Below are positions 1,595-54,191 of a DNA stretch of 64,000 nt, piece by piece. Both the position numbers and the translations under genes were made by a program. Each line of letters begins with the position of its first letter. The stretch's first letter is position 1. The stretch spans positions 7,855-71,854 of the forward strand of contig JACQBS010000051.1 of the NCBI GenBank assembly GCA_016194325.1, read 5' to 3'. Below the pieces are notes generated by a model. That model made no database searches and was not told the origin of the DNA. It saw nothing but the letters and a program-made list of their open reading frames with translations. The stretch is from Nitrospinota bacterium. GTDB taxonomy: Bacteria > Nitrospinota > Nitrospinia > UBA9942.

Positions 1595-1674
1595 ATCTCA
1601 AGTTATTGATAGATAGGTTTGTTTATACTAAGTTAAATTCATTTGCTTTCACTATTTTTCTTAAAGGTTTAGCC

Positions 1675-3879
1675 ATGTTTAGAAAATACCCGAATAAAAA
1701 CCTGAATTTAACTACAGAAGCACAGAGGACACGGAGACACAGAGATTTTAAAAGCGGTTTAAACAGTTTAAACGGTTTAATCCGGTTTTTTCCTCAGTGC
1801 CTCAGTGTCTCTGTGGCTTATAACTTCCTGCTCAAAATAAAGCTGATATTACTTATTTTTTTAGTGGCAGTTGATTTTTTTCTTTTAATCCTTATCTATA
1901 CGCCGATTGTAGATGCAACAGGGGGGGCATTTCCATATACGAAACATGGAGGTGTTGCAGGGAATGGAGTGGATCGCTCTACAACAGGGAACTGGCCCCC
2001 TGCATCTGGTGCAGGCACATATCAGAAAGGTGAATGCACTCACTGTCATGAACCACATGCAAGCTTCGGTGGAGACGAACCCTATCCCAACTATACCAAT
2101 CACCCCTCCTTTATGACGCAGGAAGAAGCTCAGGGGCCAGACCCATATCTTCTATTTGCCGATGATAACGCAAATCTATGCTGGACATGCCATGAGACTT
2201 TTCAGTTTACAGGCAAACCATTAGGATGGGGGGCATATGGATTTTATCAGGGGAGGAGTGTCTATCTGTCATCAACACATGGTGACCCATTGAAAAATGC
2301 AAATATGTTATGGCCGGGTATTAGCGGTGCAACGGTTCATCCAAGAAAAGCCCGCCCATCTACACTCAATGGTGTTTCTCAAAAAGGTATATGTCTGAAC
2401 TGTCATACTCCTCATGGTATTCGCGGTAGTGAAGGGAATGCCTATGATACAGATGCAGTCCCTGAGTCAAAACAGCTTACAACGAGCAACCCTTCTGTTA
2501 CTGCGGATTATCTTATTCCCCGTCAGCTTAATGCATGGGAAGAGAAGCTATGTGAAACCTGTCATGACGCAAGTGGGCCTGCAATTAACAACATTCAGAG
2601 TGAAATTGATAAAAGAAGTCTTGGGGGAAGCGGCCACCCTGTGGATGATACAAATCTATCAGGGCGACATGTTGTCAATGAAACTTTTCCTATAACTTCA
2701 AAGCATGTGGAATGCTATGATTGTCATAACCCTCATGTCATTAAATCAAGCAGCAGGGTTGAAGGATTAAGATATGTAGATATAAGTGGTGTTCCAAAGG
2801 ATCCAGCAGCAGGTGATTCACAGCCTTATGTCTATCAAATATGTTTTAAATGCCATGGCGATGGATATGCTAATTTTATTCCTGCGAAAACCCATCCCGG
2901 TCCCGGGCTTAATCCAAATCATTCAAATCATCCACTGCGAACCAGTACTGGAAATCCTGCCTCAGGTAATACTAATGGGAGCAATAAAAGGCTTGAATTT
3001 AACCCTTCAAGCACAAGCTCTCAATCAGATTGCGGATCATACCAGGCATCTGATTGCAGGCCCAGCCCAAGTCAGAATACTGCCTATCATCCAGTAGCCT
3101 CTACTGGTAGGAATACATCGGCTGCTATACAGAGGCAATTACTGGCTGGTCTATCTCCTGACAAGACTATTATGTGCACTGATTGCCATAATTCCGAGGC
3201 AACAGGAAGCATACAGGGACCTGTAACAGAATCCAACTTAAGGGCTACAGACCTTCCATCGGGATATGCCGGAGTAAGCCCTATAGGTCCTCATGGCTCA
3301 CAACCACCTTCTGTAGGCGGTTACCAGACATATCGGATTTTAAGGGCCAATTACAATACGACATTAGGGGGGGCAACTGAGCCATTTACTTCTTACAATC
3401 GTGATAATTTTGCCCTCTGTTTTCTCTGCCATAATGAAGAGGCATTTACAAAACAGTGTGGTGACCCTTATTTTGAGTGTGGTAGCTGGACAGATGGGCC
3501 CAAGACAAACTTCTATAGCACATTATATGATATAAATCTCCATGCAACCCATATAGCCAAAAAACCTGTTTTTGCAACTACTGGAACTTCTACAACCTGT
3601 GCAAACTGTCATTATAATGTTCATTCCAATATAGAGGCTGCCAATACTATGTATAACGACAGCAATGATCCGAACTGGAAGAGACCTCTGGATGGCGGAA
3701 CTCGTCTTATTAATTTTTCTCCAATTGTTGGAGCCAGCTCATGGTGGACCTATAGCAGACCATTCTGGGGGTGCGTTAAAACGACTGGCATATGGAGGAA
3801 GGGGTGTGATTTTAACTGTCATGGCTTCGATATGGAATTATGGTATTCACCCCCTAATATTGCAGACAGCTGTTACTAA
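1675..3879 (+). CDS. Multihaem c-type cytochrome (9 CXXCH + 1 CX3CH), membrane-anchored or secreted
   Basis: Haem motifs: CTHCH, CWTCH, CLNCH, CETCH, CYDCH, CFKCH, CTDCH, CFLCH, CANCH plus CDFNCH, many in a CXXCHxPH context. Hydrophobic segment LILLIFLVAVDFFLLILIY. The C-terminal ~390 aa are paralogous to the C-terminus of 11392..16635. Start uncertain: the ORF opens at TTG 1606 and ATG 1675 was chosen. The N-terminus is read through hairpin element 1715..1816. Confidence 0.8.
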   Translation: MFRKYPNKNLNLTTEAQRTRRHRDFKSGLNSLNGLIRFFPQCLSVSVAYNFLLKIKLILLIFLVAVDFFLLILIYTPIVDATGGAFPYTKHGGVAGNGVDRSTTGNWPPASGAGTYQKGECTHCHEPHASFGGDEPYPNYTNHPSFMTQEEAQGPDPYLLFADDNANLCWTCHETFQFTGKPLGWGAYGFYQGRSVYLSSTHGDPLKNANMLWPGISGATVHPRKARPSTLNGVSQKGICLNCHTPHGIRGSEGNAYDTDAVPESKQLTTSNPSVTADYLIPRQLNAWEEKLCETCHDASGPAINNIQSEIDKRSLGGSGHPVDDTNLSGRHVVNETFPITSKHVECYDCHNPHVIKSSSRVEGLRYVDISGVPKDPAAGDSQPYVYQICFKCHGDGYANFIPAKTHPGPGLNPNHSNHPLRTSTGNPASGNTNGSNKRLEFNPSSTSSQSDCGSYQASDCRPSPSQNTAYHPVASTGRNTSAAIQRQLLAGLSPDKTIMCTDCHNSEATGSIQGPVTESNLRATDLPSGYAGVSPIGPHGSQPPSVGGYQTYRILRANYNTTLGGATEPFTSYNRDNFALCFLCHNEEAFTKQCGDPYFECGSWTDGPKTNFYSTLYDINLHATHIAKKPVFATTGTSTTCANCHYNVHSNIEAANTMYNDSNDPNWKRPLDGGTRLINFSPIVGASSWWTYSRPFWGCVKTTGIWRKGCDFNCHGFDMELWYSPPNIADSCY
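1715..1816 (+). repeat. Tandem-unit hairpin element, CACAGAG/CTCTGTG family with CGGTTTAAA-repeat loop (copy 1)
   Basis: Left arm cagaagcacagaggacacggagacacagag; right arm cctcagtgcctcagtgtctctgtgg, about 21/29 complementary. Loop aaaagcggtttaaacagtttaaacggtttaatccggtt. A near-identical element lies at 17537..17643. Confidence 0.85.
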
Positions 3880-3893
3880 TGGAAGGAAGAAAA

Positions 3894-3979
3894 AGTGCCA
3901 GTGAACAGTGTCAGTGTCAGTATAGGATAGAAGTTGAGAAGTTAAGAGGTTTTTCTCATCTTCCCATCTTCTCAACTTC
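3894..3979 (+). repeat. Heptamer block (GTGYCAG) followed by hairpin GAAGTTGAGAAG/CTTCTCAACTTC; possible terminator or RNA-processing hairpin
   Basis: agtgccagtgaacagtgtcagtgtcag occupies 3894..3920. A perfect 12-bp stem pairs gaagttgagaag (3931..3942) with cttctcaacttc (3968..3979) and is followed by cattttt. It sits between stop 3879 and start 4003. Confidence 0.6.
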
Positions 3980-4002
3980 CATTTTTAAGGGAGGTATTTA
4001 AA

Positions 4003-4290
4003 ATGAAACGAATGATTTTAATATTATGTTTCTGTATCCTGTTTTTAATTCTCCATATCCCGCTAATCCCGTTTTACAGCATAACGGGACAGGTCTATTC
4101 TGAGATAAAAAAACCTGCATTGGGGACAGAGATAAAACCTGATTGCAAGGAATGTCACAGCAGGAATGCGACGATAAGGGGGAGTGGAAAACCTGCTATA
4201 CCTGGCCAGCCTATGAAGGGGGATGGTAAACCTACCCCACCTCCAGACCACATCAGGAAAGATAAGAGGAAAAATAAAGGGCAGCAGTAA
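4003..4290 (+). CDS. Small secreted mono-haem (CXXCH) protein, hypothetical
   Basis: GGGAGG RBS 8 nt upstream of the ATG. Hydrophobic N-terminus MILILCFCILFLILHIPLI. Single CKECH motif. Lys/Pro-rich tail. Confidence 0.5.
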   Translation: MKRMILILCFCILFLILHIPLIPFYSITGQVYSEIKKPALGTEIKPDCKECHSRNATIRGSGKPAIPGQPMKGDGKPTPPPDHIRKDKRKNKGQQ

Positions 4291-4310
4291 ATAGGAAATT
4301 ATAAAAACTT

Positions 4311-4451
4311 GCCACAGAGTCACGGAGATTTCTTTAATTTATAGTACAGGAATTTAAATGTTGAGATTGCTTCACCTTCGGTTCGCAATGACAAACAAAA
4401 TTAATAGCAATCTAATTTATTTATTTCTCTGTGCCTCTGTGTCTCTGTGGC
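4311..4451 (+). repeat. Tandem-unit hairpin (CACAGAG/CTCTGTG family) spanning the start codon of the next gene
   Basis: The left arm gccacagagtcacggagat (4311..4329) is complementary in about 13/15 terminal positions to the right arm tctctgtgcctctgtgtctctgtggc (4426..4451). ATG 4388 lies in the loop. The right arm encodes LCASVSLWL of the signal peptide. Confidence 0.8.
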
Positions 4452-5122
4452 TTATTTTATTCTCAAGCATTGGTTGTAAAACAGCTACCCAAAAGGATGA
4501 AGTAAAAACAGATGTAGAAGTAATAGATAAAGAAGGGTTTGGTTCTGTCCCTTTTTTAGAAACTGGTAAACTTGCCTTCACAACAGAGGAGGCAAAGGCA
4601 AAGATGGAGGTGAGGTTGAAGAGAGAAAAAGAGGAACTTGAAAGAAAAAAAGGTGAATTTCAAGCCCAGGCAACAACCCGATGGACAACTGATTTCTGGA
4701 TACCCCCTCCAACGAATCCTCCGCTGGTATCCGCCCTTAGGGAATTTCCAAAAGATTCATTCGGTTATCCTGATTGGAGTATGGCTGTCAAAAGGGGTAT
4801 TATAAATCCGTTAGATTCAATTAAAGGGGAAAGAGTTAAAAAGGAGCAGGAAGAATTTAATCAAGATATAATATTTCAGATAAACGATAGGATGATGGCA
4901 AATGTCCGTTTCCCTCACAGTGTACATAATTACTGGCTTTCATGTAAGGTCTGTCATCCTGCTATCTTTATAGCAAAAAGAGGCGGCAATGATTTTGGAA
5001 TGACAGATATCTGGAATGGTAAATTTTGCGGGCGGTGTCATGGTAAGGTTTCGTATGCCCCTAAGGGATTTGAAAACTGCATCCGCTGTCACAGTGTGAG
5101 GAGAGAGAAGGTTGGTTTTTAG
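4388..5122 (+). CDS. Tri-haem c7-type cytochrome domain lipoprotein
   Basis: C-terminal VRFPHSVHNYWLSCKVCHPAIF...MTDIWNGKFCGRCHGKV...FENCIRCHS matches the c(7)-type tri-haem domain pattern (FPH..H....C..CH...C..CH...C..CH). The N-terminus has lipobox-like LFSSIGC. The ORF opens at 4358; ATG 4388 is preferred. Confidence 0.75.
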   Translation: MTNKINSNLIYLFLCASVSLWLILFSSIGCKTATQKDEVKTDVEVIDKEGFGSVPFLETGKLAFTTEEAKAKMEVRLKREKEELERKKGEFQAQATTRWTTDFWIPPPTNPPLVSALREFPKDSFGYPDWSMAVKRGIINPLDSIKGERVKKEQEEFNQDIIFQINDRMMANVRFPHSVHNYWLSCKVCHPAIFIAKRGGNDFGMTDIWNGKFCGRCHGKVSYAPKGFENCIRCHSVRREKVGF

Positions 5123-5151
5123 TTTGTTCATGTATAGGAAATTATAAAATT

Positions 5152-5228
5152 AACCACAGGTGAACACAGGTAAACGCTGAAAATAAAAAAAATAAAATAA
5201 CTGTGTTAATCTGTGTTTATCTGTGGTT
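5152..5228 (+). repeat. Decamer-unit hairpin element (AACCACAG-GTGAACACAG / CTGTGTTTAT-CTGTGGTT), empty loop
   Basis: Left arm aaccacaggtgaacacaggtaaac; A-rich loop; right arm ctgtgttaatctgtgtttatctgtggtt. Preceded by the TAGGAAATTATAAAA box (5135..5150). Same family as 10908/11307 and 54092..54172. Confidence 0.85.
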
Positions 5229-5249
5229 TCATTAAGTTTTTGTTCTTTT

Positions 5250-6752
5250 ATGAGAAATTTTTTTTTAAGATTAGTTCATGATAGTTGTAAGTTGTTGGTT
5301 GTCAGTTGTTGGTTATTTCTCTGTGCCTCTGTGTCTCTGTGTCTATTAGTTTTTTGTTCAATCCCTGCCTATGCGGAAAAGGGCGATGCGGTGGCAGGAA
5401 AAGAGGTTTTTGAGAAAAGATGCAGGCAGTGCCATGGTGATACAGGTGAGGGGAATGGCCGCGTAGCGGACAAGGTATATCCTCCGCCGAGAAATTTCAC
5501 ATGGGGTCTTTTCAAATACAAGACATCCCCTATGGACCAACCTCCAAGAGATGAGGATTTGTTAAGAACGATAAATGATGGATTTGGCGAGGCATCTATG
5601 CCTCCGTGGAGGGACATAATGACTGAGAAGGAAAAGCGGGATGTTATAGCCTATGAAAAGAATTTTTCGGATATTTTTGAGACAGAGAAACCGCCTGAAG
5701 AGATTGATTATGGCGAGGAGATTCTTTACTCAGAACAGAGCGCCATTAAAGGTAAGGAGCTTTTTAAAAAGGCAGGGTGCCCTGAGTGTCATGGTGAAAA
5801 TGGAAAAGGAGATGGTATAAAAAAACTGAAGGATGTATGGGGCACAAGGGAATGGCCCAGAAACCTGACAAAGCCATGGACATACAATGGCGGCAATAAA
5901 CCAAAGAATATATTTGCAAGGATAACGGTAGGCATACCGGGAACACAAATGCCATCATTTGCAGATAAAAATAGTACAAAATATTTTACTGAAGAGGAAC
6001 GTTGGCATATAGTAAATTATGTGAGGTCTCTTGCAGATGAGACGAAGAGGGTTAAGAAAGAAGAAGAGGATAAGCCTTTAAAGGCGAAATATATAAATGG
6101 GGAAATTCCTATGGATGTCCATGCTGATGAATGGAAAGGAGCACCATTTAAGGCAATTAAATTATTCCCGCAGGACCAAACAAAGGAGAAGTTTTTTAAA
6201 CCCACTAATGATGGGATTAAATGGAGGGTCCTCTTTAATGATAAGGAGATCGCATTTTTGTTAGAGTGGGATGATAGGACAAAGAGTGTCCCCGGAGATG
6301 CAGAGGCAGAGAAGCTGAGCGAGGGGGAAGTGTTTGAGGATGCAGTTGCAATTCAGTTTCCCACGGCAATATTGCCCAAGATACCAATAAAAGAACAATT
6401 ACCGTCAATTGAACATGGGGATATGGAGTTTGGTGTAAATATCTGGTATTGGAGTAGTGGAACTACCTTGAGCCCCCAGATGACAAAGGTTAAATATTCG
6501 TATGGTATTAAATCAGAAAGGGTTGAGCCAGAAATTAAAGCAGGTTTAAGCGGGAAAGGTGAATATGCAGGTGGTATATGGAAGGTGATATTAAAAAGAG
6601 GGCTCAAGACTTCAAATCCGAAGGATGACCTCCAGTTTGAAACAGATAAACTTATACCTATAGCATTTGGAAACTGGGATGGCTCAAATGGAGGGAAGGG
6701 AAATAAACATACTGCAACCCCGTGGGATTGGTTAATATTGGAAAAAGGGTAA
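5250..6752 (+). CDS. Di-haem cytochrome c fused to an EB_dh-like (ethylbenzene dehydrogenase / DMSO-reductase type II haem-b subunit-like) domain
   Basis: Two class-I cytochrome c motifs: GKEVFEKRCRQCHGDTGEGNG and GKELFKKAGCPECHGENGKGDG. The C-terminal half (WKGAP...AFLLEWDD...DAVAIQFP...NIWYWSS...WKVILKR...IAFGNWDGSNG) resembles the EB_dh haem-binding domain. The signal peptide ends AYA-EK. The ORF opens at GTG 5223 inside the hairpin; ATG 5250 is preferred. Confidence 0.75.
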   Translation: MRNFFLRLVHDSCKLLVVSCWLFLCASVSLCLLVFCSIPAYAEKGDAVAGKEVFEKRCRQCHGDTGEGNGRVADKVYPPPRNFTWGLFKYKTSPMDQPPRDEDLLRTINDGFGEASMPPWRDIMTEKEKRDVIAYEKNFSDIFETEKPPEEIDYGEEILYSEQSAIKGKELFKKAGCPECHGENGKGDGIKKLKDVWGTREWPRNLTKPWTYNGGNKPKNIFARITVGIPGTQMPSFADKNSTKYFTEEERWHIVNYVRSLADETKRVKKEEEDKPLKAKYINGEIPMDVHADEWKGAPFKAIKLFPQDQTKEKFFKPTNDGIKWRVLFNDKEIAFLLEWDDRTKSVPGDAEAEKLSEGEVFEDAVAIQFPTAILPKIPIKEQLPSIEHGDMEFGVNIWYWSSGTTLSPQMTKVKYSYGIKSERVEPEIKAGLSGKGEYAGGIWKVILKRGLKTSNPKDDLQFETDKLIPIAFGNWDGSNGGKGNKHTATPWDWLILEKG

Positions 6753-6826
6753 TTGTCCCAAAATACTGCTAAACTCACATCTATCCGAAGTAAGTAATAA
6801 ATCCATTTGATTCCCAGGAATTTTGA

Positions 6827-6851
6827 TCCCACACATAATTTATATGTGGGA
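6827..6851. promoter_or_regulatory. 25-bp palindrome TCCCACACATAA-T-TTATATGTGGGA (candidate upstream activator site or terminator stem)
   Basis: Near-perfect inverted repeat (one mismatch) ~215 bp upstream of the sigma-54-like site at 7065 and ~75 nt downstream of stop 6752. It shares the CACATAAT core with the palindrome at 6891..6903. Confidence 0.35.
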
Positions 6852-6890
6852 TTTATCATGTGTTATATTCTACAGGTATTGGGTTAAATC

Positions 6891-6912
6891 GCACATAATG
6901 TGCATTTTTTTT
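6891..6912 (+). terminator. Weak candidate intrinsic terminator
   Basis: gcacataatgtgc forms a short stem (gcaca/tgtgc) followed by atttttttt. The stem is short and AT-rich, so support is low. Confidence 0.3.
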
Positions 6913-7064
6913 CCATTTTCATAGGGTATCTGCAACCTTTTTATGGAACAAAAGACCAATAATAATGTATTAAAATACCGAATAGAGCATAATGCCGCTG
7001 ATTTTTATATAACCCATTATAAATATTAGGTTTATCCTGATTGTAAATCTTTTCTTTATATGAA

Positions 7065-7080
7065 TGGTATAAAAAATGCA
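7065..7080 (+). promoter_or_regulatory. Candidate sigma-54 (-24/-12) promoter
   Basis: TGGTATaaaaaATGCA has the same GG-N10-GC spacing as the site at 1579. It lies 51 nt upstream of ATG 7131, at the end of the largest non-coding gap in the window. Confidence 0.4.
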
Positions 7081-7130
7081 ATATTATAGAAGTGAAATTT
7101 GTAAATATAGTAGAATCTTCTTAATTTTCA

Positions 7131-10100
7131 ATGGACAACGACATGAGTAACCACAAATACACAAGCAAAAAATTAAAGCGAAATAGGGAAACTCTCTATC
7201 TTCCTCCTTTCCCTATTTTTCTTTTTGTGTTTTTGTGGTTAATTATTTTTTCTAATATAGCATTTGCAGAGATTGCTCCAACCACTGTTTATCTATCCGA
7301 TATTAAGAGTGGTCTCTCTGTCCCTGTCCACATAGCTACAGATAAATGGGCGAATATCTATGTAACCGATCCCGGCAGGCAGCAGGTTCATAAATTTAAT
7401 GCCATCGGTGACCTCAAGTTAACGATTACCGGTATTACCGCTCCACTTGGAGTAGCAGTAGATAGTCAGGGGAATATATATATAGGTGATGACAGTAATA
7501 ACAATGTCTCGGTTTTTGATTCTGCCGGTAAGTTTCTTCGCAAATTAGGCTCAGGCAATGATGAGTTTATCATGCCCAATGATATTGTCATAGAGCCATC
7601 TTCAGGACGAATATATGTCACTGATTCAAAGGCAAACATAGTCAAGGTCTACAATCCTGATGGTTCTTTATCCTTTAACATCAGCGGTATTCTTTTTCCA
7701 ACAGGTATTCATATAGATTCTAAGAAGGGGGAGCTTCTTATAGGTGACCTTATAAACTCTCAGGTAAAGGTCTTTGACCTCTCCGGAAATTTTCTAAGAA
7801 GTTTTGGCTCAAGTGGTGTGGGTGCTGGTCTTATTAGCAGTCTGCAGGGGCTGACTGTGGATAAGAGTGGAAGGATATATGTTGTTGATGCCCATAAGGG
7901 ATGGGTTCAGGTCTTTGATTCAGCAGGGAATTACCTTTCCTTTATTGGAAGTGGTAATCTATATACACCGCTGGATGTGATGATAGACCCATACAATAGA
8001 CTTATTGTCTCATCATCTTCTGATGGGAAGCTATCCATTTACGGTATTGATGGTGGTAACCTCCCATCTAATTGGAATGAAAATTACCTGCCTGATACTG
8101 ATGGAGATGGGATGCCTGATGCATGGGAGGAGGCAAACGGACTCAATCCAAATCTTAATGATGCCTCCCTTGACCCTGATAATGACGGCCTTACAAATCT
8201 CAATGAGTATCTATCCGGCTCAGACCCCCACAATCCTGATACTGATGGAGATGGTTTAAAAGACGGTGTTGACCCAAGCCCGGGAATAGCTACTAATAAT
8301 AAACCATCAGCAAATGCCGGTCCTGATATGACATATGACCCGGGTATTATTACTCTTAATGGAAACGGCAGCAGTGACCCAAATTCCCTGTCCCTTAAGT
8401 ATACATGGACAGAGAGCGGGACGAATCCTGCAAATGTAACTCTTTCAGATAATGGGACAGTAACAGCAATTAAACCAACATTTATTGCTACAAAAGCTGG
8501 AGTTTATAAATTTACTCTCAAGGTTGCGAATAACTATTTTGAAAGTAATCCCGATGATGTTCTGATTACAATCAGGAATTTTACTCCAACAGCCTATGCA
8601 GGGTTGGACCAGACTGTCAGTGGTAATACACAGGTCAATATTAGTGGAGCAGGCAGTTTAGATGCAAATGGAGATGCACTAACATATAAGTGGACACAGG
8701 TTTCAGGCACTCAGGTGAGCCTTATTGGAGGAAGCACGAGAGACGCAAATTTTACCCCACAGAGCTCAGGGGTATATATCTTCAGGCTTATCGTGAGTGA
8801 TGGTGTCAATACCAGTGCACCTGATGAGATAAACATAACAGTCAACAGTTCCAATACTGTCCCTGTGGCAGATGCAGGTGTTGACCAGGTCGTTTATTTG
8901 CCTGCTACAGTAACCTTAAACGGTAATAGAAGCAGTGATGGTGATGGAGACCCATTGACATATAGTTGGAATCTCTTATCCGGGCCAAAGGCTGTTACAT
9001 TATCCAATGCCGCTAATAAAAACCCCACATGGACAACTGATACCCCGGGTATCTATACCTTTGCCCTGACTGTCTCCGATGGAAAGGATAATAGCATCTC
9101 TGATAGTGTAAATATTACTGTAAACGGCGCAAATCAGGTTCCTGTTGCAAATGCAGGCACGGATCAGAATGTAATACTCTATTCAACTGTTACCTTAGGG
9201 GGAGGGATGAGCTACGACACGGATAATTCCCCCTCTCCTCTTACATATAAATGGACACAGGTATTTGGAACAACTGTCTCTCTTAACAATTCCACCAGCA
9301 TGACCCCGACATTTGTTCCAATCCACGAAGATGTGCTTAGATTTCAGCTCACCGTTAGTGATGGGCTGAATACCAGTCTATACGATGAGGTTGAGATAAA
9401 GGTAGCAGGCAGTAACATACCCCCTGTGGCTAATGCAGGGAATGACCAAACGGGTATAGTAGGCATATTTATCAAACTTAACGGAACAGGGAGTATGGAT
9501 AAGGATGGGGATACGCTGACCTATCAGTGGACACAGGTGAGAGGTGCATCAGTAATACTCTCCAACATATATTCAAGAGAGCCTACCTTCACACCTTCAC
9601 AACCGGGTATCTATGAATTTATGCTATTAGTGAAAGACAATATTACTTCAAGCTCCGATACAGTTATGATAACAGTTAATAGTCCGCAGAACTCCCTGCC
9701 GCTTGCCAATGCAGGAATAGACAGGATTGTGGAGGTTGATTCTACTGTCCTGCTTAATGGTGGAGGGAGTGATGCAGATGGAGACCCGCTAACCTACAGA
9801 TGGCAATTTGTAAGCGGGCCTGCCTCTATTATTTTATCCAGCACTTCAGCAGCAAATCCAGCTTTTGTGCCAAAGATTATAGGAAGCTACATATTCAGGC
9901 TTACTGTAAATGATACCAAAGGGGATAGCAGTCCTGATGATGTTCAGATTTCAGTGGCTCCTAAAGGTGCCATTGTATTCAATATTAAAAATGGGAAAGA
10001 CAATCTCCTTTCAGCAACCGATTTGACGATATATCCATGGGTTGACCTCTTGATTCCTAACGGGTCTGTAAATGGAAACATGGATATAGCAATTGCAGAA

Positions 10101-10883
10101 GAGAAGAATCCACCCCCAACACGGGTAGGAATAAAGATGATGAATACTGCAGTTGATTTTGCCCCTGATGGCGCAAAATTTAATTCAAAGGTTAAAGTAA
10201 AGATTCCATATACCCTGTCCAGATTATCTGAGGCGGGTATAAGTGACCCTAAGACACTTAAAGTATATACATATAAAAAGGAGACGCAAGTGTGGGAGGA
10301 GATTACCCCTACCAATATCAATGTAGAGAGTCAATATGTTGAATTTGAGACAGACCACTTTTCTATCTATGCACTTGGAAGCCCTGAAAAGACTGGAGGT
10401 TATGGAGATACAGGCGGGTCAGGGGGTTCAGGTGGGTCAAATGGTGGAGGTTCAGGCGGGTCAGGGGGGTCGGGTGGAACAGGTGGAACAGGTGGAACAG
10501 GCGGTGGAAATAGCAATACAGGAGGGCAGATGAGCAGTGGTTCATCTGGTGGCGGGGGCGGTGGTGGTTGTTTCATTGCCACAGCCTCATACGGCTCTTA
10601 TCTCCATCCCCATGTAAAGATATTCAGGGACTTCAGAGACCAGTATCTACTTCCCTATGCTCCGGGGAGATACTTTGTAAGCACCTATTACAAATATAGT
10701 CCTCCTATTGCTGATATAATTGCAGAGCATTGGACACTGAGGGTTTTGACAAGGATTATTCTCTTTCCATTTCTGTTAATTGCCGCATTTTTTGTGAAAG
10801 CTACAGCAATACAAAAGATATTTATTATTATAATAATTGTTGCTATAATGCACAGAAAAAAAATAATGAATTATGAATTTTGA
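7131..10883 (+). CDS. Secreted NHL-repeat beta-propeller / TSP3-like Ca-binding / 7x PKD-like Ig domain protein with Gly-rich linker and CFI-box-like C-terminal anchor
   Basis: - Six NHL-type blades ([75 protein letters not shown], ...).
- [12 protein letters not shown]...[13 protein letters not shown]...[12 protein letters not shown] repeats.
- Seven ~90-aa repeats of the form ANAG.DQ....V.L.G..S.D.DGD.LTY.W.
- A (GGS/GGT)n linker.
- C-terminal [27 protein letters not shown] plus a TM helix. Confidence 0.85.
7149..7240 (+). repeat. Nested hairpin encoding the signal peptide of the NHL/PKD protein
   Basis: Outer arms are aaccacaaatacacaagcaaaaa (7149..7171) and tttttgtgtttttgtggtt (7222..7240). 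Inner arms aaatagggaa (7181..7190) and ttccctattt (7209..7218) are perfectly complementary. The translation is [14 protein letters not shown]...[13 protein letters not shown]. Confidence 0.8.
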
Positions 10884-10907
10884 ATTAAAAGATTAAGGAA
10901 ATAATGA

Positions 10908-11335
10908 AACCACAGATAAACACAGATGAACACAGAAAAAGAATTCCTTTACAAAGAATTAACCGGGGAAATAATAGAGGCATCATATAATGTTCATAAT
11001 AGTCTGGGTTGTGGGTTACTTGAAAAGGTATATGAGAATTCACTTATATGGGAGATAGAATTAATGGGGAGAAAAGTTTCTTCACAAAGAGAGTTCAAAG
11101 TAATTTATCGTAAGAAAGAGGTTGGAATATATTATGCAGATTTAGTTGTAGAGGATAAGGTGATAGTTGAAGTGAAATCGGTAGAAAGGATAGATGATAT
11201 TCATCGTGCACAATTGTTAAACTATCTGAGAATATCTGGCTTAAGGGTTGGGTTGATTATAAACTTTGCCAGATCTAAATTAGAATATGAGAGATTGGTA
11301 GTTTAACCTGTGTTTATCTGTGTTCATCTGTGGTT
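10908..11335 (+). repeat. Inverted decamer-repeat arms bracketing the GxxExxY gene (gene-in-loop hairpin cassette)
   Basis: The left arm aaccacagataaacacagatgaacacaga (10908..10936) contains the ATG. The right arm cctgtgtttatctgtgttcatctgtggtt (11307..11335) starts 1 nt after the stop. The arms are complementary, with two decamer units swapped in order. Confidence 0.85.
10926..11306 (+). CDS. GxxExxY protein (PD-(D/E)XK nuclease superfamily)
   Basis: GLLEKVY is the eponymous G-x-x-E-x-x-Y motif. Length 126 aa, with the typical ...YYADLVVEDKVIVEVKS...HRAQLLNYL... core. Confidence 0.85.
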   Translation: MNTEKEFLYKELTGEIIEASYNVHNSLGCGLLEKVYENSLIWEIELMGRKVSSQREFKVIYRKKEVGIYYADLVVEDKVIVEVKSVERIDDIHRAQLLNYLRISGLRVGLIINFARSKLEYERLVV

Positions 11336-11391
11336 AATGCATAATTAAGGTAATTAGAAAATGGAAATTCTTAAAGGAGGAATACACAAAA

Positions 11392-14300
11392 GTGAAGAAC
11401 CTGTTCAGTAGGGACCAAGGAGAAAAAGTAAAAAGGAAGCCTGTCTGCCCAACAGGTAGAAAGGTATGGTTGGGGGTTACACTTGCACTTATACTTACAC
11501 TTACACTTACACTTTTTAAAGCACAAGGGGCAATTGACCCGCCTCATTATGACACAAGCACGACAAGCCCATTTTATTGTAGCGACTGTCATAAAGAGAG
11601 GACAGAATCAGATGTCCCGGGACTCTGTATGAGCTGCCACAACCCTGCCGGTAGGGCAAAGGCAAAGCCATTTGCCAGAACTGACCAGTCAACAATGGGG
11701 CAGGGAGTGGTTGGAGAGGACACTAAAGGGACCACTCACAGGTTTGATTCTGAAGGCTTGAAATATGTCAAGCTGTGGAAACCAAATAATAGCACGGGAA
11801 AGATAAAGATTGCAGGGGGCTCCATGTATTCAGGTGATTTTAGCACACAAAATGAAATGGAATATGAGTTTGAGATTGTTAACCCAGGGGATGTGGGTGC
11901 GGCAACCTTTAAATACCGTTGCCGCACAAGGAGTAAGCCTCAGCCAACCAGTTCTACCAACCCATTTAATACACCCGTATGGGACCGTGATGCAGACTGG
12001 AGCGGCTGGACATCTGCTTACACTACAGCAGCAAGCGTCTCATTAAACGACTCAATCTGCGGCGGCGATAAAGGTATCTCCCTATCCTTTGAGAATGGTT
12101 CAGGGAGCCCCAACTCCTTTGATGCAGGAACCGGAGGCAGGGTTTATGTAAAACTCCTAAACCAGCCGAGTAATGACAATATGAAATTAAGAGTGATGAA
12201 TAACAAAATCAACTGCTCAGTCTGCCACAATCAGCATTCTATGCAGCTTGACCGCCCCTACCTGAGGGCAGGTAATGTGGGAAATGCACTCTGCAAGCAC
12301 TGCCATGATGACAGGGATAGGAGTCATTATATGCAGGAGATGGGGACTGCTGATGATGGAACTGGGGATAGTTCCAATCAGACCACACTTCAGTTGGTGG
12401 ATATATCAAAGAACTGGACAGTAAACCAGTGGGTTGGAAAGCAAGTCTATTTCCAGAAGAACTTCAGGGGTGTGCAGGCGGCAGTAGATAATGAGGAAAA
12501 AAATCTTACAGGGACTTTGACCTTTACGCAGGGCTCTGCAACAGTAACGGGTGTAGGGACATTATTTTCAACAGAGATAAGCTCCCTGCAATTTATAAGG
12601 CTCTCATCATCCTCCAAATGGTATCCTGTAACATCTATAGGAACAAATACCTCATTAACCCTTTCAATACCATTTGAGGAAGCCACTGTTACGGGTAATG
12701 CCATGACTTCATCCTTCGCTGGTTTTTATCGTAAGATTACCTCCAATACTTCAAACACACTTGTTCTGGATGGCGCCTTAAATGCCAAAATTGATAATGG
12801 TCTCAGATACAGGATTGTAGATACTAATAATTACGGCAGTCATCCGGTTGGTATTAAATACTCACAGATGGATTTTGATACCCGCTTCAATTCTGATATA
12901 AAACCCCTGCCGCTTGATGACAATGGAACACCATCGGATACAAGTGATGACACTGTTCAGTGCATGACCTGCCATAGTCCGCATTTTACACATTCAGTAG
13001 GAACAGAAGGTGGTGCTGCAACATCAGGGACCACCACATCCCTTACAGATACAACAAAGAGTTGGACAGCAAATTCATTGGTAGGATACGAATTAAGGAT
13101 AAGAAATGAATGGACATCGGGGACATCCAATCAGAATCCGAACTGGCGAAAGAGGAGGTTTATCACCTCAAATACAGCGAATAAAGTTGAATGGCTGGAC
13201 CCACTCACCATCAGGAGTAACCCAAATGACAGTTCTGTGATGATTGACAGCCCTCCATCTGCGGGTGATGTTTATGAGATTGTTAATACCAGCGGGACCA
13301 ACCTGACCAACGGAATCGGTGATGGGTATATCTTAAGAAAGCCGAATGGTTATTCAAATGGGTATATACGGAAATATCAAAATATTGATGATGATAAAGT
13401 AATCTGTAAGACCTGCCATAAATATAAAAACCATTTTGGCGATGAAACTGCCGGTGGGTATGCCAGAAGCTGCATGGATTGTCATACACCGCATAATACA
13501 ACAAACAGATTCCTTTTGAGAGAGGTAATCAATAACCGTGAAGTCCGTATAAGACCGGGTGATAACTATGTAAACTCCTCCCGCACAGGCGTCTGTCAGG
13601 TCTGTCATACACAGACAAAACACTGGAGAAACGATGGGTCGGAGCCTCAGGCTCATTATGCCGAAGGGTGTCCTCAGTGCCACCAGCATGATAGTGAGGA
13701 GAGGAGCTGGATTTATATATGTAAAACATGTCATGGATACCCGCCTGTCCCAAAGGGAACTATTGTGGATAAAAAGGGTAATATACACACCAACATCAAT
13801 GATTCTATTTGTACCAACACCAGTGACCCTAATTATGCCGGTCCTTGTGCTGAGTATAATACCTTCAATCAAAATATACCTCATTCATCCTACCGTATTG
13901 AGGATTACGATGGCGGAGGCGGCGCACATCTTGTCCATGTGGTTGGGGCATTACAACAATTTGAATGTAAAATCTGCCACGGACATATGGGTTATGGGAA
14001 TGAGCATGGCGGCAGTGTGGGCAGAAAAACCCCGGACAGAAACAATATTACCTTTAATTTCCAGCTTGATTACAGTTTCAACGAGCGATTAGAGACAAAA
14101 CTTGGGTATCAGACAATAGACCCGCCTGTCTATCCGAAAATGATGGGTGTAGAGGTGGGGACATCGGCTACTTATATGAATCGTGCCGATGCCACAAATG
14201 GTTATGGACCCGGGAAAAAGCATATTGGTTCTGGTGCTACAAGTAACGGTGGGAACAACGAAGATGCTACTACACCGAGTATACTTGGCAGGGCGGTTAC

Positions 14301-16635
14301 TTCTTCTGACCCGCCAGAATGTTATGTAGGATGTCATAATCCGAGGAGGCTCTATATGCAGACTGAGCCTGAGTCTGATATGGTAGATACGGTGGGCTCA
14401 GGAAGAGTGGATCCGATAGAGAACGCTCAGAGAGAAGCCGATCCAACATATGGCGATTCTGGTTACGGAAACAAATTTAACTGGACATGGTATTTTAATT
14501 CATCCGGAGTGCAGGGAGGGGCAGGAGGATTACCGAGGGATGAGAACCCTGATGTGCCATGTGCAAAATGTCATGACGCTCAGGGGACCCTTGTGCAGGG
14601 GAATGAGGATAGTCCATCTAAATATAAAGGCGTCAATTATATATCAGCCCATCCGCCAGACCCAACTAAACGGACCGACTGCCTTGTCTGCCATGATTAT
14701 AATAATTCAACAAAACCGCATAAAAAGGGGACACCCTATCTGAATAATAAAGATGGCGGTGCATCTATTGAATTTGATATTACAAATCCATCATCCCTTG
14801 AGCCATTCTGTCTCTCCTGCCATGATAGTAATGGCGCTACTGATGGCAATACTGCTACAGGAAATCCAAAGAGACCCTTCAGTAAAGAGACAGATGTATC
14901 CAATGAGGTTCCAGATGTAAAAGTAAGGTGGACAGGTGCTGCACACTCTGCAAATATCTCCTGTTTCGGGGATGGAGTGTCTAATGGCTGTCACGGCAAT
15001 CCGCACGGCTCTGGAAAACGGGCACTCCTTGCACCGTATAGTGAATCAGTAGGTGAAGACCAGAAATACTTCTGCTTCAACTGTCATGGAAATAATCGTG
15101 ACAGACTTGTCCTTGCACCGAATATACAGGACCAGATAGAGAAAAGGTCAGTTATCTATGGGAGTGATGGAAATCAATATCGTTGTATTTTAAGCCATAC
15201 ATCGGCAGCAAGTAATAAACCTATAACAGGGGCAAGCTGGGCGACTTATTGGGTGGCAACAGGTGTAGCAACAGGAAGTGATAACTGGGTTAGCGGAAAA
15301 AATTATACAGGTGGCAGCGGTCATCCGATACCTGCTGCCGGTGAGCCGTGGCTCCACAAGCGGAAAGAGTCCATAATCGTGTCTAATAGGCATTCAGAAT
15401 GTATTGACTGCCATGACCCTATGGGTGATAGGAGCACCCACAGGCTGCATTCGCGGAGATATGTGGATATAGATGGAAACCCATGGAATCCTAATAAAAA
15501 TTCAGTGGCATCAACACATCCTATGTGGGGAGGGGATTCAACTACAAACTATGTCCGACAGCCATATGTATATGAAGTGTGCTTCCGCTGTCATGGACCA
15601 AATTATGGAACATTCTTTAAAGATTATATGCCTTTCCCTCAAGTTGCAAAAGACAGGGTCGGGATGGATGGGCATTTCAGTGACAAGAGGAAGGAGTTTG
15701 ACCCTCGGTCTAACCAGTTTGCAGATTATCCCGCAAGCGGGAACCTCGGCGCAAATACAGCCTATCATCCTGTAGCTGCCCCGGGCAGAAATGCAACAGA
15801 CCCGCTTTACAGACAATTACAGGAGGCATTTGATTTAACATCTGCGAATGATTTAAAGTCACTCACTATCCAGTGTCCGGACTGCCATAATAATAATGTG
15901 TTGGGAACTGCTTCCACAGGCTTAAGGGGACCTGTAACCTACTCCAACCGTCGTATTACTGATAAAACACCTGCGATTGTAAATACTCCCAATACCTTCA
16001 GTAATACAGATAACAGGCAGGATGACAATAGGATAGGGCCACATGGCTCAACAAACAGAAGAATCTTAAGGGCGCCTTATAATACCAATGTTTATAACAC
16101 AAGAACGGAAAGAGGCAGTTATGGAACGGTAGGGGCAACATTTGGCAGCGGCGGTGCGAGAGATAACTTACAACTCTGTTTCCTCTGTCATAAAGAGTCT
16201 GTTTTATTAGAAACGGATGGCGGGGCAGCAGGGACAAACTTTGGAGGCACAGGTAATGGGTGGTGGACGGCAAACCTCCATGCAGAACATCTTTCTGCGT
16301 CAACTTACTCAGGCAGTGAAGGGGGACAGGCTGTCTGCCATGAGTGTCATCATAATGTCCATAGCAATGTAGAGGCACAGAATACCATTTATGGAGATGG
16401 GCTCGGCGGTATGCTCCCGCCTGATAATGAGGATGGAATCCTTGATGGCGTCTCATCCACACATCTATTGAACTTTGCCCCTTCAGTTCAGGGTGCTACT
16501 GCACTCAAGCCGAGGTGGTATTACGACGGACAGTATTACAGATGTGATATGTATTGTCACGGTGCGAATATGAATTATTGCTGGTATAAACATGGACAGG
16601 CAGGAAGCATATCACAGTGGTGTGAGGATGACTAA
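11392..16635 (+). CDS. Giant multihaem c-type cytochrome (20 canonical CXXCH + 2-3 CX3CH variants), secreted
   Basis: GTG start 9 nt after AGGAGG. The (LT)n-containing signal region is LGVTLALILTLTLTLFKAQGA. I counted 20 CXXCH: CSDCH, CMSCH, CSVCH, CKHCH, CMTCH, CKTCH x2, CMDCH, CQVCH, CPQCH, CKICH, CAKCH, CLVCH, CLSCH, CFNCH, CIDCH, CFRCH, CPDCH, CFLCH, CHECH. CYVGCH and CDMYCH are additional variants. Long haem-free beta-rich inserts occur between haem clusters. Confidence 0.85.
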   Translation: MKNLFSRDQGEKVKRKPVCPTGRKVWLGVTLALILTLTLTLFKAQGAIDPPHYDTSTTSPFYCSDCHKERTESDVPGLCMSCHNPAGRAKAKPFARTDQSTMGQGVVGEDTKGTTHRFDSEGLKYVKLWKPNNSTGKIKIAGGSMYSGDFSTQNEMEYEFEIVNPGDVGAATFKYRCRTRSKPQPTSSTNPFNTPVWDRDADWSGWTSAYTTAASVSLNDSICGGDKGISLSFENGSGSPNSFDAGTGGRVYVKLLNQPSNDNMKLRVMNNKINCSVCHNQHSMQLDRPYLRAGNVGNALCKHCHDDRDRSHYMQEMGTADDGTGDSSNQTTLQLVDISKNWTVNQWVGKQVYFQKNFRGVQAAVDNEEKNLTGTLTFTQGSATVTGVGTLFSTEISSLQFIRLSSSSKWYPVTSIGTNTSLTLSIPFEEATVTGNAMTSSFAGFYRKITSNTSNTLVLDGALNAKIDNGLRYRIVDTNNYGSHPVGIKYSQMDFDTRFNSDIKPLPLDDNGTPSDTSDDTVQCMTCHSPHFTHSVGTEGGAATSGTTTSLTDTTKSWTANSLVGYELRIRNEWTSGTSNQNPNWRKRRFITSNTANKVEWLDPLTIRSNPNDSSVMIDSPPSAGDVYEIVNTSGTNLTNGIGDGYILRKPNGYSNGYIRKYQNIDDDKVICKTCHKYKNHFGDETAGGYARSCMDCHTPHNTTNRFLLREVINNREVRIRPGDNYVNSSRTGVCQVCHTQTKHWRNDGSEPQAHYAEGCPQCHQHDSEERSWIYICKTCHGYPPVPKGTIVDKKGNIHTNINDSICTNTSDPNYAGPCAEYNTFNQNIPHSSYRIEDYDGGGGAHLVHVVGALQQFECKICHGHMGYGNEHGGSVGRKTPDRNNITFNFQLDYSFNERLETKLGYQTIDPPVYPKMMGVEVGTSATYMNRADATNGYGPGKKHIGSGATSNGGNNEDATTPSILGRAVTSSDPPECYVGCHNPRRLYMQTEPESDMVDTVGSGRVDPIENAQREADPTYGDSGYGNKFNWTWYFNSSGVQGGAGGLPRDENPDVPCAKCHDAQGTLVQGNEDSPSKYKGVNYISAHPPDPTKRTDCLVCHDYNNSTKPHKKGTPYLNNKDGGASIEFDITNPSSLEPFCLSCHDSNGATDGNTATGNPKRPFSKETDVSNEVPDVKVRWTGAAHSANISCFGDGVSNGCHGNPHGSGKRALLAPYSESVGEDQKYFCFNCHGNNRDRLVLAPNIQDQIEKRSVIYGSDGNQYRCILSHTSAASNKPITGASWATYWVATGVATGSDNWVSGKNYTGGSGHPIPAAGEPWLHKRKESIIVSNRHSECIDCHDPMGDRSTHRLHSRRYVDIDGNPWNPNKNSVASTHPMWGGDSTTNYVRQPYVYEVCFRCHGPNYGTFFKDYMPFPQVAKDRVGMDGHFSDKRKEFDPRSNQFADYPASGNLGANTAYHPVAAPGRNATDPLYRQLQEAFDLTSANDLKSLTIQCPDCHNNNVLGTASTGLRGPVTYSNRRITDKTPAIVNTPNTFSNTDNRQDDNRIGPHGSTNRRILRAPYNTNVYNTRTERGSYGTVGATFGSGGARDNLQLCFLCHKESVLLETDGGAAGTNFGGTGNGWWTANLHAEHLSASTYSGSEGGQAVCHECHHNVHSNVEAQNTIYGDGLGGMLPPDNEDGILDGVSSTHLLNFAPSVQGATALKPRWYYDGQYYRCDMYCHGANMNYCWYKHGQAGSISQWCEDD

Positions 16636-16639
16636 ATTT

Positions 16640-16761
16640 AGCAATGAGCAATGAGTGCTAAGCGATGAGTAAAAACTTATTGCTAATCACACATTATGAA
16701 ATTATGATTCGCAATTTATTATTTACATTGCTCATTGCTCATTGCTTATCACTCATTGCTT
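16640..16761 (+). repeat. Octamer-unit hairpin (GCAATGAG/CTCATTGC) with the gene start codon in its loop
   Basis: The left arm agcaatgagcaatgagtgctaagcgatgagt pairs with the 3' part of the right arm (ctcattgcttatcactcattgct) in about 21/23 positions. The loop contains gaaattATGATTCGCAATTT (ATG 16704). The right arm encodes LLIAHCLSLIAYA. Confidence 0.8.
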
Positions 16762-17531: not shown

Positions 17532-17536
17532 AATTA

Positions 17537-17643
17537 GCCACGGAGACACGGAGGCACAGAGTTTTTAAAAGCGGTTTACACGGTTTGAACAGTTTAAACG
17601 GTTTAATCTGGTTTATATCTCTGTGTCTCTGTGACTCTGTGGC
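17537..17643 (+). repeat. Tandem-unit hairpin element, CACAGAG/CTCTGTG family with CGGTTTAAA-repeat loop (copy 2)
   Basis: Left arm gccacggagacacggaggcacagag; right arm tctctgtgtctctgtgactctgtggc, about 21/25 complementary. The loop aaaagcggtttacacggtttgaacagtttaaacggtttaatctggtt is homologous to the loop of 1715..1816. Confidence 0.85.
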
Positions 17644-17659
17644 AAGAAAGGGTGAAATT

Positions 17660-54091: not shown

Positions 54092-54172
54092 AACCACAGA
54101 TAAACACAGATGGACGCAGATATTTTTTAAAATCTTTTTTCTATCTGTGTTTATCCGTGTTCATCTGTGGTT
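54092..54172 (+). repeat. Decamer-unit hairpin element (AACCACAGATAAACACAG family), empty loop
   Basis: The left arm aaccacagataaacacagatggacgcagata and the right arm tatctgtgtttatccgtgttcatctgtggtt are 26/31 complementary, with a 19-nt AT loop. It is followed by the reverse complement of the AGGAAATTATAAAA box (54175..54189). Confidence 0.9.
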
Positions 54173-54191
54173 GCTTTTATAATTTCCTACA

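Follow-up and report, generated by a model that had tools for sequence, protein, structure and literature searches.

The 64,000 nucleotides (nt) of contig JACQBS010000051.1 between positions 7,855 and 71,854 (assembly GCA_016194325.1, from an uncultured Nitrospinota bacterium of groundwater), referred to below as the window, open with the ATPase gene of a type II secretion system (T2SS), followed by five genes for c-type cytochromes, among which lies a gene for a surface protein with NHL and PKD domains. This gene set is an uncharacterised variant of sets known from iron-oxidising and metal-reducing bacteria. Its source assembly comprises 3.1 Mb in 175 contigs (39% GC, about 90% complete), and the closest public records are groundwater metagenome-assembled genomes (MAGs) labelled Nitrospinota, such as NC_groundwater_1752_Pr3_B-0.1um_39_30 with 99% identity. 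The contig is labelled C69 here (window, C69:7855-71854), other C-numbers are contigs of the same genome, and L-numbers denote genome loci used for comparison or located in this genome, 79 of them related loci; L001 and L007 are contigs of the same metagenome. Positions are window coordinates unless marked with a contig or locus. The genes and modules that carry the argument are as follows (aa, amino acids; ORF, open reading frame).

2-1396, forward strand: GspE ATPase gene, with its 5' end upstream of the window; TIGR02533 at 628.6 bits (cut-off 630.25, the gene being truncated by the window edge) and PF00437 at 2e-138.
1606-3879, forward strand: decahaem cytochrome, 757 aa as the longest ORF or 688 aa from the database start at 1813; nine CXXCH motifs and one terminal CX3CH.
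2611-3876, forward strand: C-terminal module of the decahaem cytochrome (residues 336-757 of the long ORF), placed by BLASTP paralogy.
4003-4290, forward strand: mini monohaem cytochrome, 95 aa, one CXXCH and a basic tail.
4358-5122, forward strand: c7-type trihaem cytochrome, 254 aa, three CXXCH; TIGR04257 and PF14522.
5223-6752, forward strand: dihaem-c/EB_dh cytochrome, 509 aa, two CXXCH; two class I cytochrome c domains and an EB_dh domain.
7131-10883, forward strand: NHL/PKD protein, 1250 aa, with an NHL beta-propeller, about six PKD/Ig domains, a Gly-rich linker, a CFI-box (CFI-box-CTERM) and a C-terminal membrane helix.
11392-16635, forward strand: large cytochrome, 1747 aa, with 20 CXXCH, two CX3CH and one CX8CH.
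About 15298-16587, forward strand: C-terminal module of the 1747-aa cytochrome, placed by BLASTP paralogy.

A recount of the haem-binding motifs in the five c-type genes gave 9 (+1), 1, 3, 2 and 20, with two CX3CH in the largest, identical to the numbers proposed earlier from the DNA without database searches (hereafter the sequence-only reading). Shuffling the residues of each protein left on average 0.05 CXXCH and never more than 1-2; the observed motif number is far above this expectation, and chance is therefore excluded. Across the family of the decahaem (78 homologues), all nine CXXCH and the terminal CX3CH are invariant. The family of the 1747-aa protein (11 members) has 16 of the 20 CXXCH invariant, and those at 1495, 1596 and 1649 in the C-terminal part are nearly so; a CX3CH (C977-H982) and the CX8CH (C1191-X8-C1200-H1201) are also invariant. 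Given these extra conserved motifs, up to 23 haems are therefore predicted to be possible in this protein, and the CX8CH may be an unusual haem-attachment site. The CX8CH reads CFGDGVSNGCH (window 14962-14994, residues 1191-1201) and is kept even in members that are only 37-48% identical. Haems are sparse in the large cytochromes, with one for every 76-87 aa; the 26- and 36-haem proteins of the same genome have one for about every 26 aa. All of the cluster proteins carry an N-terminal hydrophobic signal or anchor by inspection of their sequences, in agreement with the earlier claim that every product is secreted or anchored. For the decahaem, the start is likely at 1813, with an AxA signal cleavage site before TGGAFPYTKHGG.

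Profile searches confirmed the domain assignments of the sequence-only reading (Paired_CXXCH_1, cytochrome c7, EB_dh, NHL/PKD and GspE). Paired_CXXCH_1 (PF09699) matched the 757-aa and 1747-aa proteins at 63.3 and 39.6 bits (cut-off 20.6), while TIGR01905 matched the former at 51 bits and the latter at 20.1 bits, under the cut-off of 25.2. Such matches identify a motif-level family and convey little functional information. The 254-aa trihaem protein matched TIGR04257 at 56 bits (cut-off 40) and PF14522 at 1e-11; it is possibly a lipoprotein, to judge from a signal ending in SSIGC followed by K, and its gene is kept beside that of the decahaem in L001, L005, L014 and L015. In the 509-aa protein, PF13442 and PF00034 each matched in two stretches and PF09459 at 75.6 bits (cut-off 33.3); TIGR03477 reached 92 bits (3e-26), below its cut-off of 169.85. 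No molybdopterin gene was found anywhere on the window's contig, such genes being located on other contigs. A hairpin resembling a terminator lies at 6891-6911, after the 509-aa gene.

The defining feature of this cytochrome family is an uncharacterised five-haem C-terminal module. Residues 336-747 of the 757-aa protein align with residues 1303-1732 of the 1747-aa protein (BLASTP 1e-51, 32% identity), so that the paralogy of the two C-termini, already stated in the sequence-only reading, is borne out; the widely shared core comprises the last ~260 aa of the decahaem module (about nt 3070-3840). A phmmer search of 1.84 billion representative proteins returned 235 matches at E <= 1e-3, of which 92 were at E <= 1e-10. 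Residues 154-410 of the module query recur as the C-terminal end of proteins of 470-2269 aa, and full-length homologues of the 1747-aa architecture number only about ten. In Pfam and NCBIfam, the module is matched only by models at the level of the CXXCH motif and belongs to no named family. The description of these proteins as Geobacter-type paired-CXXCH cytochromes therefore stands at the level of the motif, but not as an identification of the family.

Neither single-sequence nor family-profile searches of the PDB found a solved structure related to the module or the decahaem beyond motif-level matches, the best profile match being 9yuq_N, a 218-aa 'putative multiheme cytochrome' (E = 0.007, motif-level). 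An AlphaFold2 model of the 688-aa decahaem, built with 78 homologues, has a pLDDT of 62 and a pTM of 0.58, and a Foldseek search of this model against the PDB gave nothing below E = 3. The model of residues 44-1050 of the 1747-aa protein, built with 11 sequences, has a pLDDT of 41 and is usable for the secondary structure of its inserts only. The protein has four haem-poor inserts, which are beta-rich in the model with a local pLDDT of 70-89. Structure prediction, which the sequence-only reading had called for, thus agrees with the haem-free beta-rich inserts proposed there, with confidence confined to these local regions, while the models as a whole are weak.

As a weak proxy for expression, we calculated pairwise ratios of nonsynonymous to synonymous substitution rates (dN/dS) against orthologues in L001, L005, L006 and L007. 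Every gene tested fell between 0.12 and 0.26 (decahaem 0.12, 1747-aa cytochrome 0.14-0.20, NHL/PKD protein 0.21-0.25), and the genes are therefore maintained by selection.

We identified conserved neighbours of the cytochrome family across the 79 related loci, 54 of which have enough flanking sequence. In 36 of these 54, the 3 kb upstream of the cytochrome gene include an NHL gene on the same strand. A tree of the last 300 residues resolves three clades with different partners. Clade 1 (7 rows, SH-aLRT 100) holds the 757-aa protein of the window, is often T2SS-adjacent, and is the only group with a mini monohaem partner. Clade 2 (23 rows, SH-aLRT 98) holds the 1747-aa protein; an FGE-like gene is directly downstream in 20 of the 23 rows, the window's own counted, and several rows also have an NHL gene upstream. 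Clade 3 consists of Myxococcota and Gemmatimonadota, whose loci have an NHL gene upstream and, about 3 kb downstream, a gene for a dihaem class I cytochrome c. Within the FGE-linked clade, the 1747-aa protein is a member with an N-terminal extension. Orthologues of the NHL/PKD protein lie directly 5' of the large cytochrome in L005, L006 and L007.

Gene fusions were found in two loci. L080 contains an uninterrupted ORF that joins NHL and 11-haem parts (8564-11458), and L003 encodes a 4743-aa polypeptide in which at least 15 CXXCH precede Laminin_G and NHL domains. Its gene has as neighbours T2SS genes, an NHL gene, a mini monohaem and a decahaem with 55% identity. From the conserved adjacency and the fusions, the NHL/PKD protein is thus a conserved partner of the big cytochrome. 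The sequence-only reading had rightly recognised its presence but had seen in it a gene interleaved with the cytochromes, rather than a conserved upstream partner. The fusions further suggest that the NHL and FGE-fold proteins are physical partners of the cytochrome. In the literature searched we found no description of this cytochrome family, of its C-terminal module or of the NHL - cytochrome - FGE-fold order; clusters of cytochromes and NHL genes are already known as a class.

Two further candidates for family-wide partners were rejected. Only 6 of 76 loci have a small monohaem ORF of this kind after the cytochrome, and all six belong to the clade of the window's 757-aa protein. In L059, the one Myxococcota locus checked with Pfam, similarity to the 509-aa protein is confined to the dihaem class I cytochrome c part, and EB_dh is missing. 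We additionally observed a bacterial-type NHL-cytochrome locus in L048, from a bin labelled Thermoplasmata archaeon; its neighbour in the tree is L058, a Nitrospinae MAG, and the contig is probably mis-binned.

Since an FGE-like gene is conserved downstream in the clade of the 1747-aa protein, the functional unit extends past 16635, where the sequence-only reading had ended it, to the FGE-like genes and the giant gene that follows them. These, together with a small inserted gene and the edges of a variable block discussed below, are the remaining features of the window.

16665-17531, forward strand: FGE-fold protein 1, 288 aa, secreted, C-type-lectin-like; PF03781 at 1e-54.
17513-18697, forward strand: FGE-fold protein 2, secreted, true start probably near 17657; PF03781 at 3e-51.
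19169-35665, forward strand: giant secreted protein, 5498 aa, with at least 13 Laminin_G_3 lectin-fold domains, F5/8 type C and DUF2341.
10926-11306, forward strand: small GxxExxY / PD-(D/E)XK gene inside a hairpin cassette; TIGR04256 at 1e-40.
5137-5228, no strand: left edge of the 49-kb block, with the box AGGAAATTATAAAA followed by a hairpin repeat.
54092-54190, no strand: right edge of the 49-kb block, with a hairpin repeat followed by the inverted box TTTTATAATTTCCT.

L005, L006 and L007 likewise have two FGE-fold genes, the second of which corresponds to FGE-fold protein 2. Behind the pair, L006 and L007 encode a giant of 4.9-6.2 thousand aa, and L005 one that the contig end truncates at 2007 aa. 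The copper-binding Cys pair in the RGGS..C....C.RYR region, which we take to be the mark of true FGEs, is missing from both proteins of the window, which read KGGAWMGPMTPFARGAHRY and RGGSYLINAHESARASARY. Both are lectin-like and, on this basis, presumably non-catalytic. In the interval 16665-19131, the two FGE-fold genes are followed by a 23S-rRNA-IVP / Avd-like four-helix-bundle gene, an arrangement that recalls the targets and accessory gene of diversity-generating retroelements; no reverse-transcriptase family matched among the scanned ORFs of the window. The hairpin cassette that carries the GxxExxY gene (10887-11338) is 83% identical to L007 16445-16895, where it lies between the two FGE-like genes. 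This gene is an inserted passenger outside the system, and the differing slot in L007 is consistent with a mobile cassette.

The GspE gene is the last of a complete T2SS operon, the remainder of which is upstream on the contig. C69 carries minor pseudopilins, a PilM/N-type GspL, GspM and a 706-aa secretin upstream of the window, and from colinearity with L001 the operon continues onto the end of contig C13 with GspF, G and H. The upstream ORFs are colinear with L001 at 70-85% nucleotide identity, and the T2SS genes of L001 match T2SSF, T2SSG, GspH, T2SSK, PilM_2/PilN, T2SSM_b, Secretin and T2SSE in Pfam. The T2SS lies directly upstream and in the same orientation in the window and in L001, L005, L012 and L013, and T2SS genes lie within 10 kb in L016 and L030.

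Comparison with L001 shows that the gene set is composite. In L001 the order is T2SS - 699-aa cytochrome (77% identical to the 757-aa protein) - small ORF - c7 trihaem - 177-aa gene - three TPR genes - ExbB/ExbD. Colinearity by blastn ends at 5121 of the window and resumes at 54247, and 5122-54190 (49 kb) is therefore missing from L001 at that site. The first genes of the block encode the EB_dh cytochrome of 509 aa, the NHL/PKD protein and the large cytochrome of 1747 aa. From the NHL/PKD gene through the big cytochrome and the two FGE genes to the giant, the order is kept in three different genomic contexts: L005 is arranged as in the window, in L006 the unit stands among sulfatase genes, and in L007 its genes follow a cluster of NHL - NHL - hexahaem - 530-aa protein, the counterpart of C13:23657-28056. 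The block is variable between relatives, and the 'cluster' therefore resolves into two modules. Module A comprises the T2SS and the 757-, 95- and 254-aa genes, and module B the EB_dh cytochrome, the NHL/PKD protein, the big cytochrome, the two FGE-fold proteins and the giant. The single cluster of the sequence-only reading is accordingly abandoned in favour of a T2SS-linked unit and a 49-kb block from 5223 onward.

The box that brackets the block has 14 nt and is in inverted orientation at the two edges. The right part of the block (rhodanese, FGE-like and WD40 genes) has about 50% amino-acid identity to paralogues at C13:28-38 kb, which suggests recombination between duplicated segments of one super-locus. 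Beyond the block, L001 shares the segment 54192-63980, an operon whose products are, in addition to ExbB and two ExbD, three TPR proteins (632, 929 and 333 aa) and proteins of 177, 127 and 476 aa, the last with a C-terminus resembling TonB. This operon always follows the T2SS-cytochrome unit, and could energise an outer-membrane step. A search for sigma-54 promoters (TGGCAC-N5-TTGCW, at most two mismatches) gave 39 matches in place of 28 ± 6 expected, not above chance, and the site at 1579-1594 is a candidate only.

We additionally searched the rest of the genome for components of electron-transfer systems. The sequence-only reading depended on a cytochrome c maturation (Ccm) system being encoded, and Ccm genes of system I are present. 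PF01578 matched 648-aa CcmF-type and 236-aa CcmC-type frames, and NCBIfam models matched CcmE (100 bits), CcmA, CcmB and CcmC, all four under their curated cut-offs (CcmA by about 1 bit) and hence family-level matches rather than equivalogs; ResB was not found in the genome. Haem-copper oxidases are present, as is an NapC/NrfH-type quinol cytochrome with an octahaem partner, located elsewhere than the cluster. The dihaem-c/EB_dh architecture is shared by four paralogues of 515-581 aa, the window's own included (C44, C140, C9 and C69), which points to a family of periplasmic carriers particular to this lineage.

Contig C13, which adjoins the start of C69, carries a second cytochrome/propeller cluster immediately upstream of the T2SS (C13:20145-38240, L095). 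It consists of three c7 trihaems, a 403-aa hexahaem, NHL proteins of 340 and 292 aa and a 391-aa hexahaem, then a 530-aa protein with weak GNA1162/LpoB-like lipoprotein-family matches, rhodanese, FGE-like proteins and a WD40 protein. This stretch is closer than the window to the core of the omcE and Uet systems considered below, and suggests one super-locus of ~100 kb for this function. Just past the window (C69:71902-74014) are a 202-aa trihaem paralogue of the 254-aa protein and, after it, a 503-aa beta-propeller-like repeat protein, a further pairing of cytochrome and propeller. On C79 (C79:5724-10293, L110), adjacent monohaem proteins of 424 and 423 aa, with no NCBIfam match, precede a class I monohaem cytochrome and a DmsE-like cytochrome of 427 aa (9 CXXCH, NrfH-like N-terminus); the 424/423-aa pair may be Cyc2-like candidates.

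Clusters that combine NHL, multihaem and c7 genes have precedents in extracellular electron transfer (bioRxiv 10.1101/2022.05.06.490989; PMC10734462; PMC13712944; PMC9769857). In 'Ca. Tenderia electrophaga' and some Gallionella, the Uet cluster encodes an undecahaem, two NHL proteins, three c7 trihaems, a tetrahaem, a PPIase, a 28-strand barrel and a cupredoxin (bioRxiv 10.1101/2022.05.06.490989; PMC10734462). It resembles the window in its secreted cytochrome of ~10-11 haems with 'doubled CXXCH' and no other named domain (likened by description), in adjacent NHL genes (UetH/I; here the NHL/PKD gene directly upstream of the 1747-aa cytochrome), in c7 trihaems that match TIGR04257 (UetD/E/G; here the 254-aa protein and its paralogue past the window), in nearby TPR genes, and in its hosts, which are putative lithotrophs using extracellular donors. 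In contrast, no tetrahaem UetA, PPIase UetB, 28-strand barrel UetC or cupredoxin UetF was found in the window or C13:20-40 kb; a T2SS operon stands here in place of the Uet porin; and Uet is without the 23-haem cytochrome, PKD stalk, FGE-fold partners and lectin giant found here.

The omcE nanowire cluster of Geobacter and Desulfuromonas soudanensis comprises at minimum two cytochromes, two propeller lipoproteins, OmcE and a large barrel (PMC13712944). It similarly co-encodes multihaem cytochromes and beta-propellers (by description, compare the two hexahaems and two NHL proteins of C13), and in many genomes a large accessory island of surface or glycan type follows its core. Unlike it, the window and C13:20-40 kb contain no OmcE-like tetrahaem subunit or large beta-barrel, and give no sign of filament polymerisation. 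Thus, while the NHL and c7 components are shared, the tetrahaem, PPIase and barrel are not, and we therefore do not file the window as a Uet/omcE member.

The decahaem is like Shewanella MtrC and OmcA in its size and haem number (~690 aa, ten haems), in its sparse haem density, in being secreted and in having its gene beside a T2SS. The Pfam MtrC/MtrF domain II/IV (PF22113) matched the 1747-aa protein at 44.4 bits, and a precomputed match exists for the 688-aa protein. There is however no match to the NCBIfam OmcA/MtrC family, so that it is not a member, and the decahaem has a signal-peptidase I site rather than a lipobox, no MtrA/MtrB partners (PF11854 was not found in the genome), and a model without the beta-barrel domains of MtrC. 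Desulfovibrio ferrophilus IS5 (DFE_0448-0451, DFE_0461-0465; PMC9769857) likewise encodes large multihaem cytochromes among NHL-repeat genes (PMC9769857 describes these NHL-containing clusters), with no obvious Mtr-type porin, and pseudopilin and T2SS genes have been discussed for this organism. It belongs to another phylum and has other cytochrome families, by description, and is without FGE-fold, EB_dh or lectin-giant partners. By analogy, the cluster of the window would work like an outer-surface cytochrome system, and it looks T2SS-linked and porin-less.

We consider it moderately probable that the cluster is a cell-surface, that is, extracellular, electron-transfer apparatus assembled from two abutting modules. 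The electron conduit proposed in the sequence-only reading therefore remains the best account of these genes, strengthened by the T2SS, the NHL adjacency, the fusions and the purifying selection, although it is incomplete. In this apparatus, the Ccm system would mature the cytochromes in the periplasm, and the adjacent T2SS would export the folded holo-decahaem, and perhaps the 23-haem protein, across the outer membrane. Such export would stand in for the porin of the Mtr, Pcc and Uet systems; Shewanella MtrC and OmcA are reportedly exported by type II secretion. The c7 trihaem and dihaem-c/EB_dh proteins would serve as periplasmic relays, and the NHL and FGE-fold proteins as scaffold subunits that dock and hold the cytochrome, a role proposed because their gene order is conserved across phyla and fusions occur. 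The NHL/PKD protein would be a stalk anchored by its C-terminal helix; stalk, haem chain and giant adhesin could together push the redox chain tens of nanometres towards a solid, with the shared five-haem module as a docking or terminal 'head'. As to the direction of electron flow, c7-type trihaems are typical of reducers, and CcoP-like dihaems and oxidases of oxidisers; the CcoP-like class I dihaem and the haem-copper oxidases slightly favour an uptake of electrons from donors such as solid Fe(II).

Several observations weigh against this apparatus. The T2SS is adjacent in only 5 of the 79 related loci, and T2SS export is therefore no family-wide rule. Module B is not always beside module A (L001, L006, L007), and the modules may therefore serve different functions. 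The cluster contains neither an outer-membrane barrel or porin nor an inner-membrane quinol-linked cytochrome; no barrel was found among the unassigned ORFs of the window, which are too small or TonB-like, and the search for a porin partner elsewhere, as the sequence-only reading had advised, was empty, with no match to the MtrB/PioB family (PF11854) at E <= 0.01 in the ~90%-complete genome. With structure models at a pLDDT of 62 and 41 and no fold match for the decahaem, a linear haem wire is therefore an assumption. Finally, the C-terminal half has nine candidate invariant His for six bis-His haems, and the approximately three in surplus could form a catalytic or metal site.

Those surplus histidines bring into view an alternative that we hold to be unlikely, namely a periplasmic multihaem redox enzyme for a soluble nitrogen, sulfur or metal(loid) substrate. 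Its catalytic head would be the C-terminal module, with a five-coordinate haem or an extra metal site, its catalytic or substrate-binding subunits the NHL and FGE-fold proteins, and its link to the respiratory chain the dihaem-c/EB_dh protein. The unusual conserved CX3CH and CX8CH, the rhodanese and several FGE-like genes of the 49-kb block and the porin-less cluster are compatible with such an enzyme, and EB_dh is usually the haem-b subunit of periplasmic molybdoenzymes, to which the TIGR03477 match of 3e-26 would correspond. That match nevertheless stops at 92 bits against a cut-off of 170, and the molybdopterin subunits that an EB_dh gene would be expected to adjoin are on other contigs. 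No catalytic family was matched, the profile search of the PDB was empty, and the FGE-fold proteins are without the Cys pair that we take as catalytic, while the T2SS linkage, PKD stalk, C-terminal anchor and 5498-aa lectin giant point outside the periplasm. The absence of the block from the L001 site, and its other junction in L007, could instead mean that two unrelated systems lie side by side: the T2SS and decahaem for electron transfer, and the block mainly an island for adhesion or biofilm matrix (PKD, lectin-fold giant, PD40, WD40), in which the big cytochrome would be a matrix-embedded electron store or a scavenger of peroxide or other oxidants. Most of the 49 kb does encode repeat-rich surface proteins, and in L006 the unit stands among sulfatase genes with no other cytochromes near. 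We regard this, too, as improbable: the genome of L003 and L016, whose decahaem has 55% identity, again combines this decahaem and T2SS genes with a mini monohaem, an NHL gene, a lectin giant and another cytochrome, the block in L007 follows an NHL/hexahaem cluster that belongs to the same super-locus in this genome, and both big cytochromes share the terminal module.

It is very unlikely, in our estimation, that the locus is a divergent but true member of the Uet/omcE nanowire type, with its tetrahaem, PPIase and barrel elsewhere in the 175-contig assembly. The genes on C13 upstream of the T2SS (three c7 trihaems, two hexahaems, two NHL propellers and the 530-aa lipoprotein-like protein) do resemble the 'two cytochromes + two propeller lipoproteins' of the omcE core (PMC13712944), but no tetrahaem OmcE/UetA-like gene, PPIase or large barrel occurs in the window or C13:20-40 kb.

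Returning to the surface apparatus, a broader version of it may be entertained, about which we are distinctly doubtful. The order of NHL, five-haem-module cytochrome and FGE-fold genes is seen in MAGs labelled Nitrospinota, Nitrospirota and Thermodesulfobacteriota/'Deltaproteobacteria', with a sister clade in Myxococcota and Gemmatimonadota, and might represent an undescribed surface redox machine of several phyla, in which the FGE-fold protein would bind an external substrate or matrix, the module would be the terminal electron-exchange head, and the T2SS would replace the porin that every described conduit has. If so, this machine would, in this Nitrospinota lineage, have been stretched with a wire of ~23 haems, a PKD stalk and a 5498-aa adhesin, reaching solids tens of nanometres off.

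Electron exchange with minerals without porin conduits of the Mtr, Pcc or Cyc2 type bears on the cycling of iron, manganese and carbon in the subsurface. Should the proposed apparatus be confirmed, Gram-negative cells would have one more known way to connect electrically with their surroundings, one that needs no porin, and a role would fall to the many orphan NHL/FGE-like genes beside cytochromes in groundwater and soil genomes. Even if the locus were merely a Uet/omcE-like variant, it would still extend Uet/omcE systems to Nitrospinota-labelled groundwater bacteria. The family offers an invariant ten-haem core, a distinctive C-terminal module, conserved partners and a likely T2SS export route.

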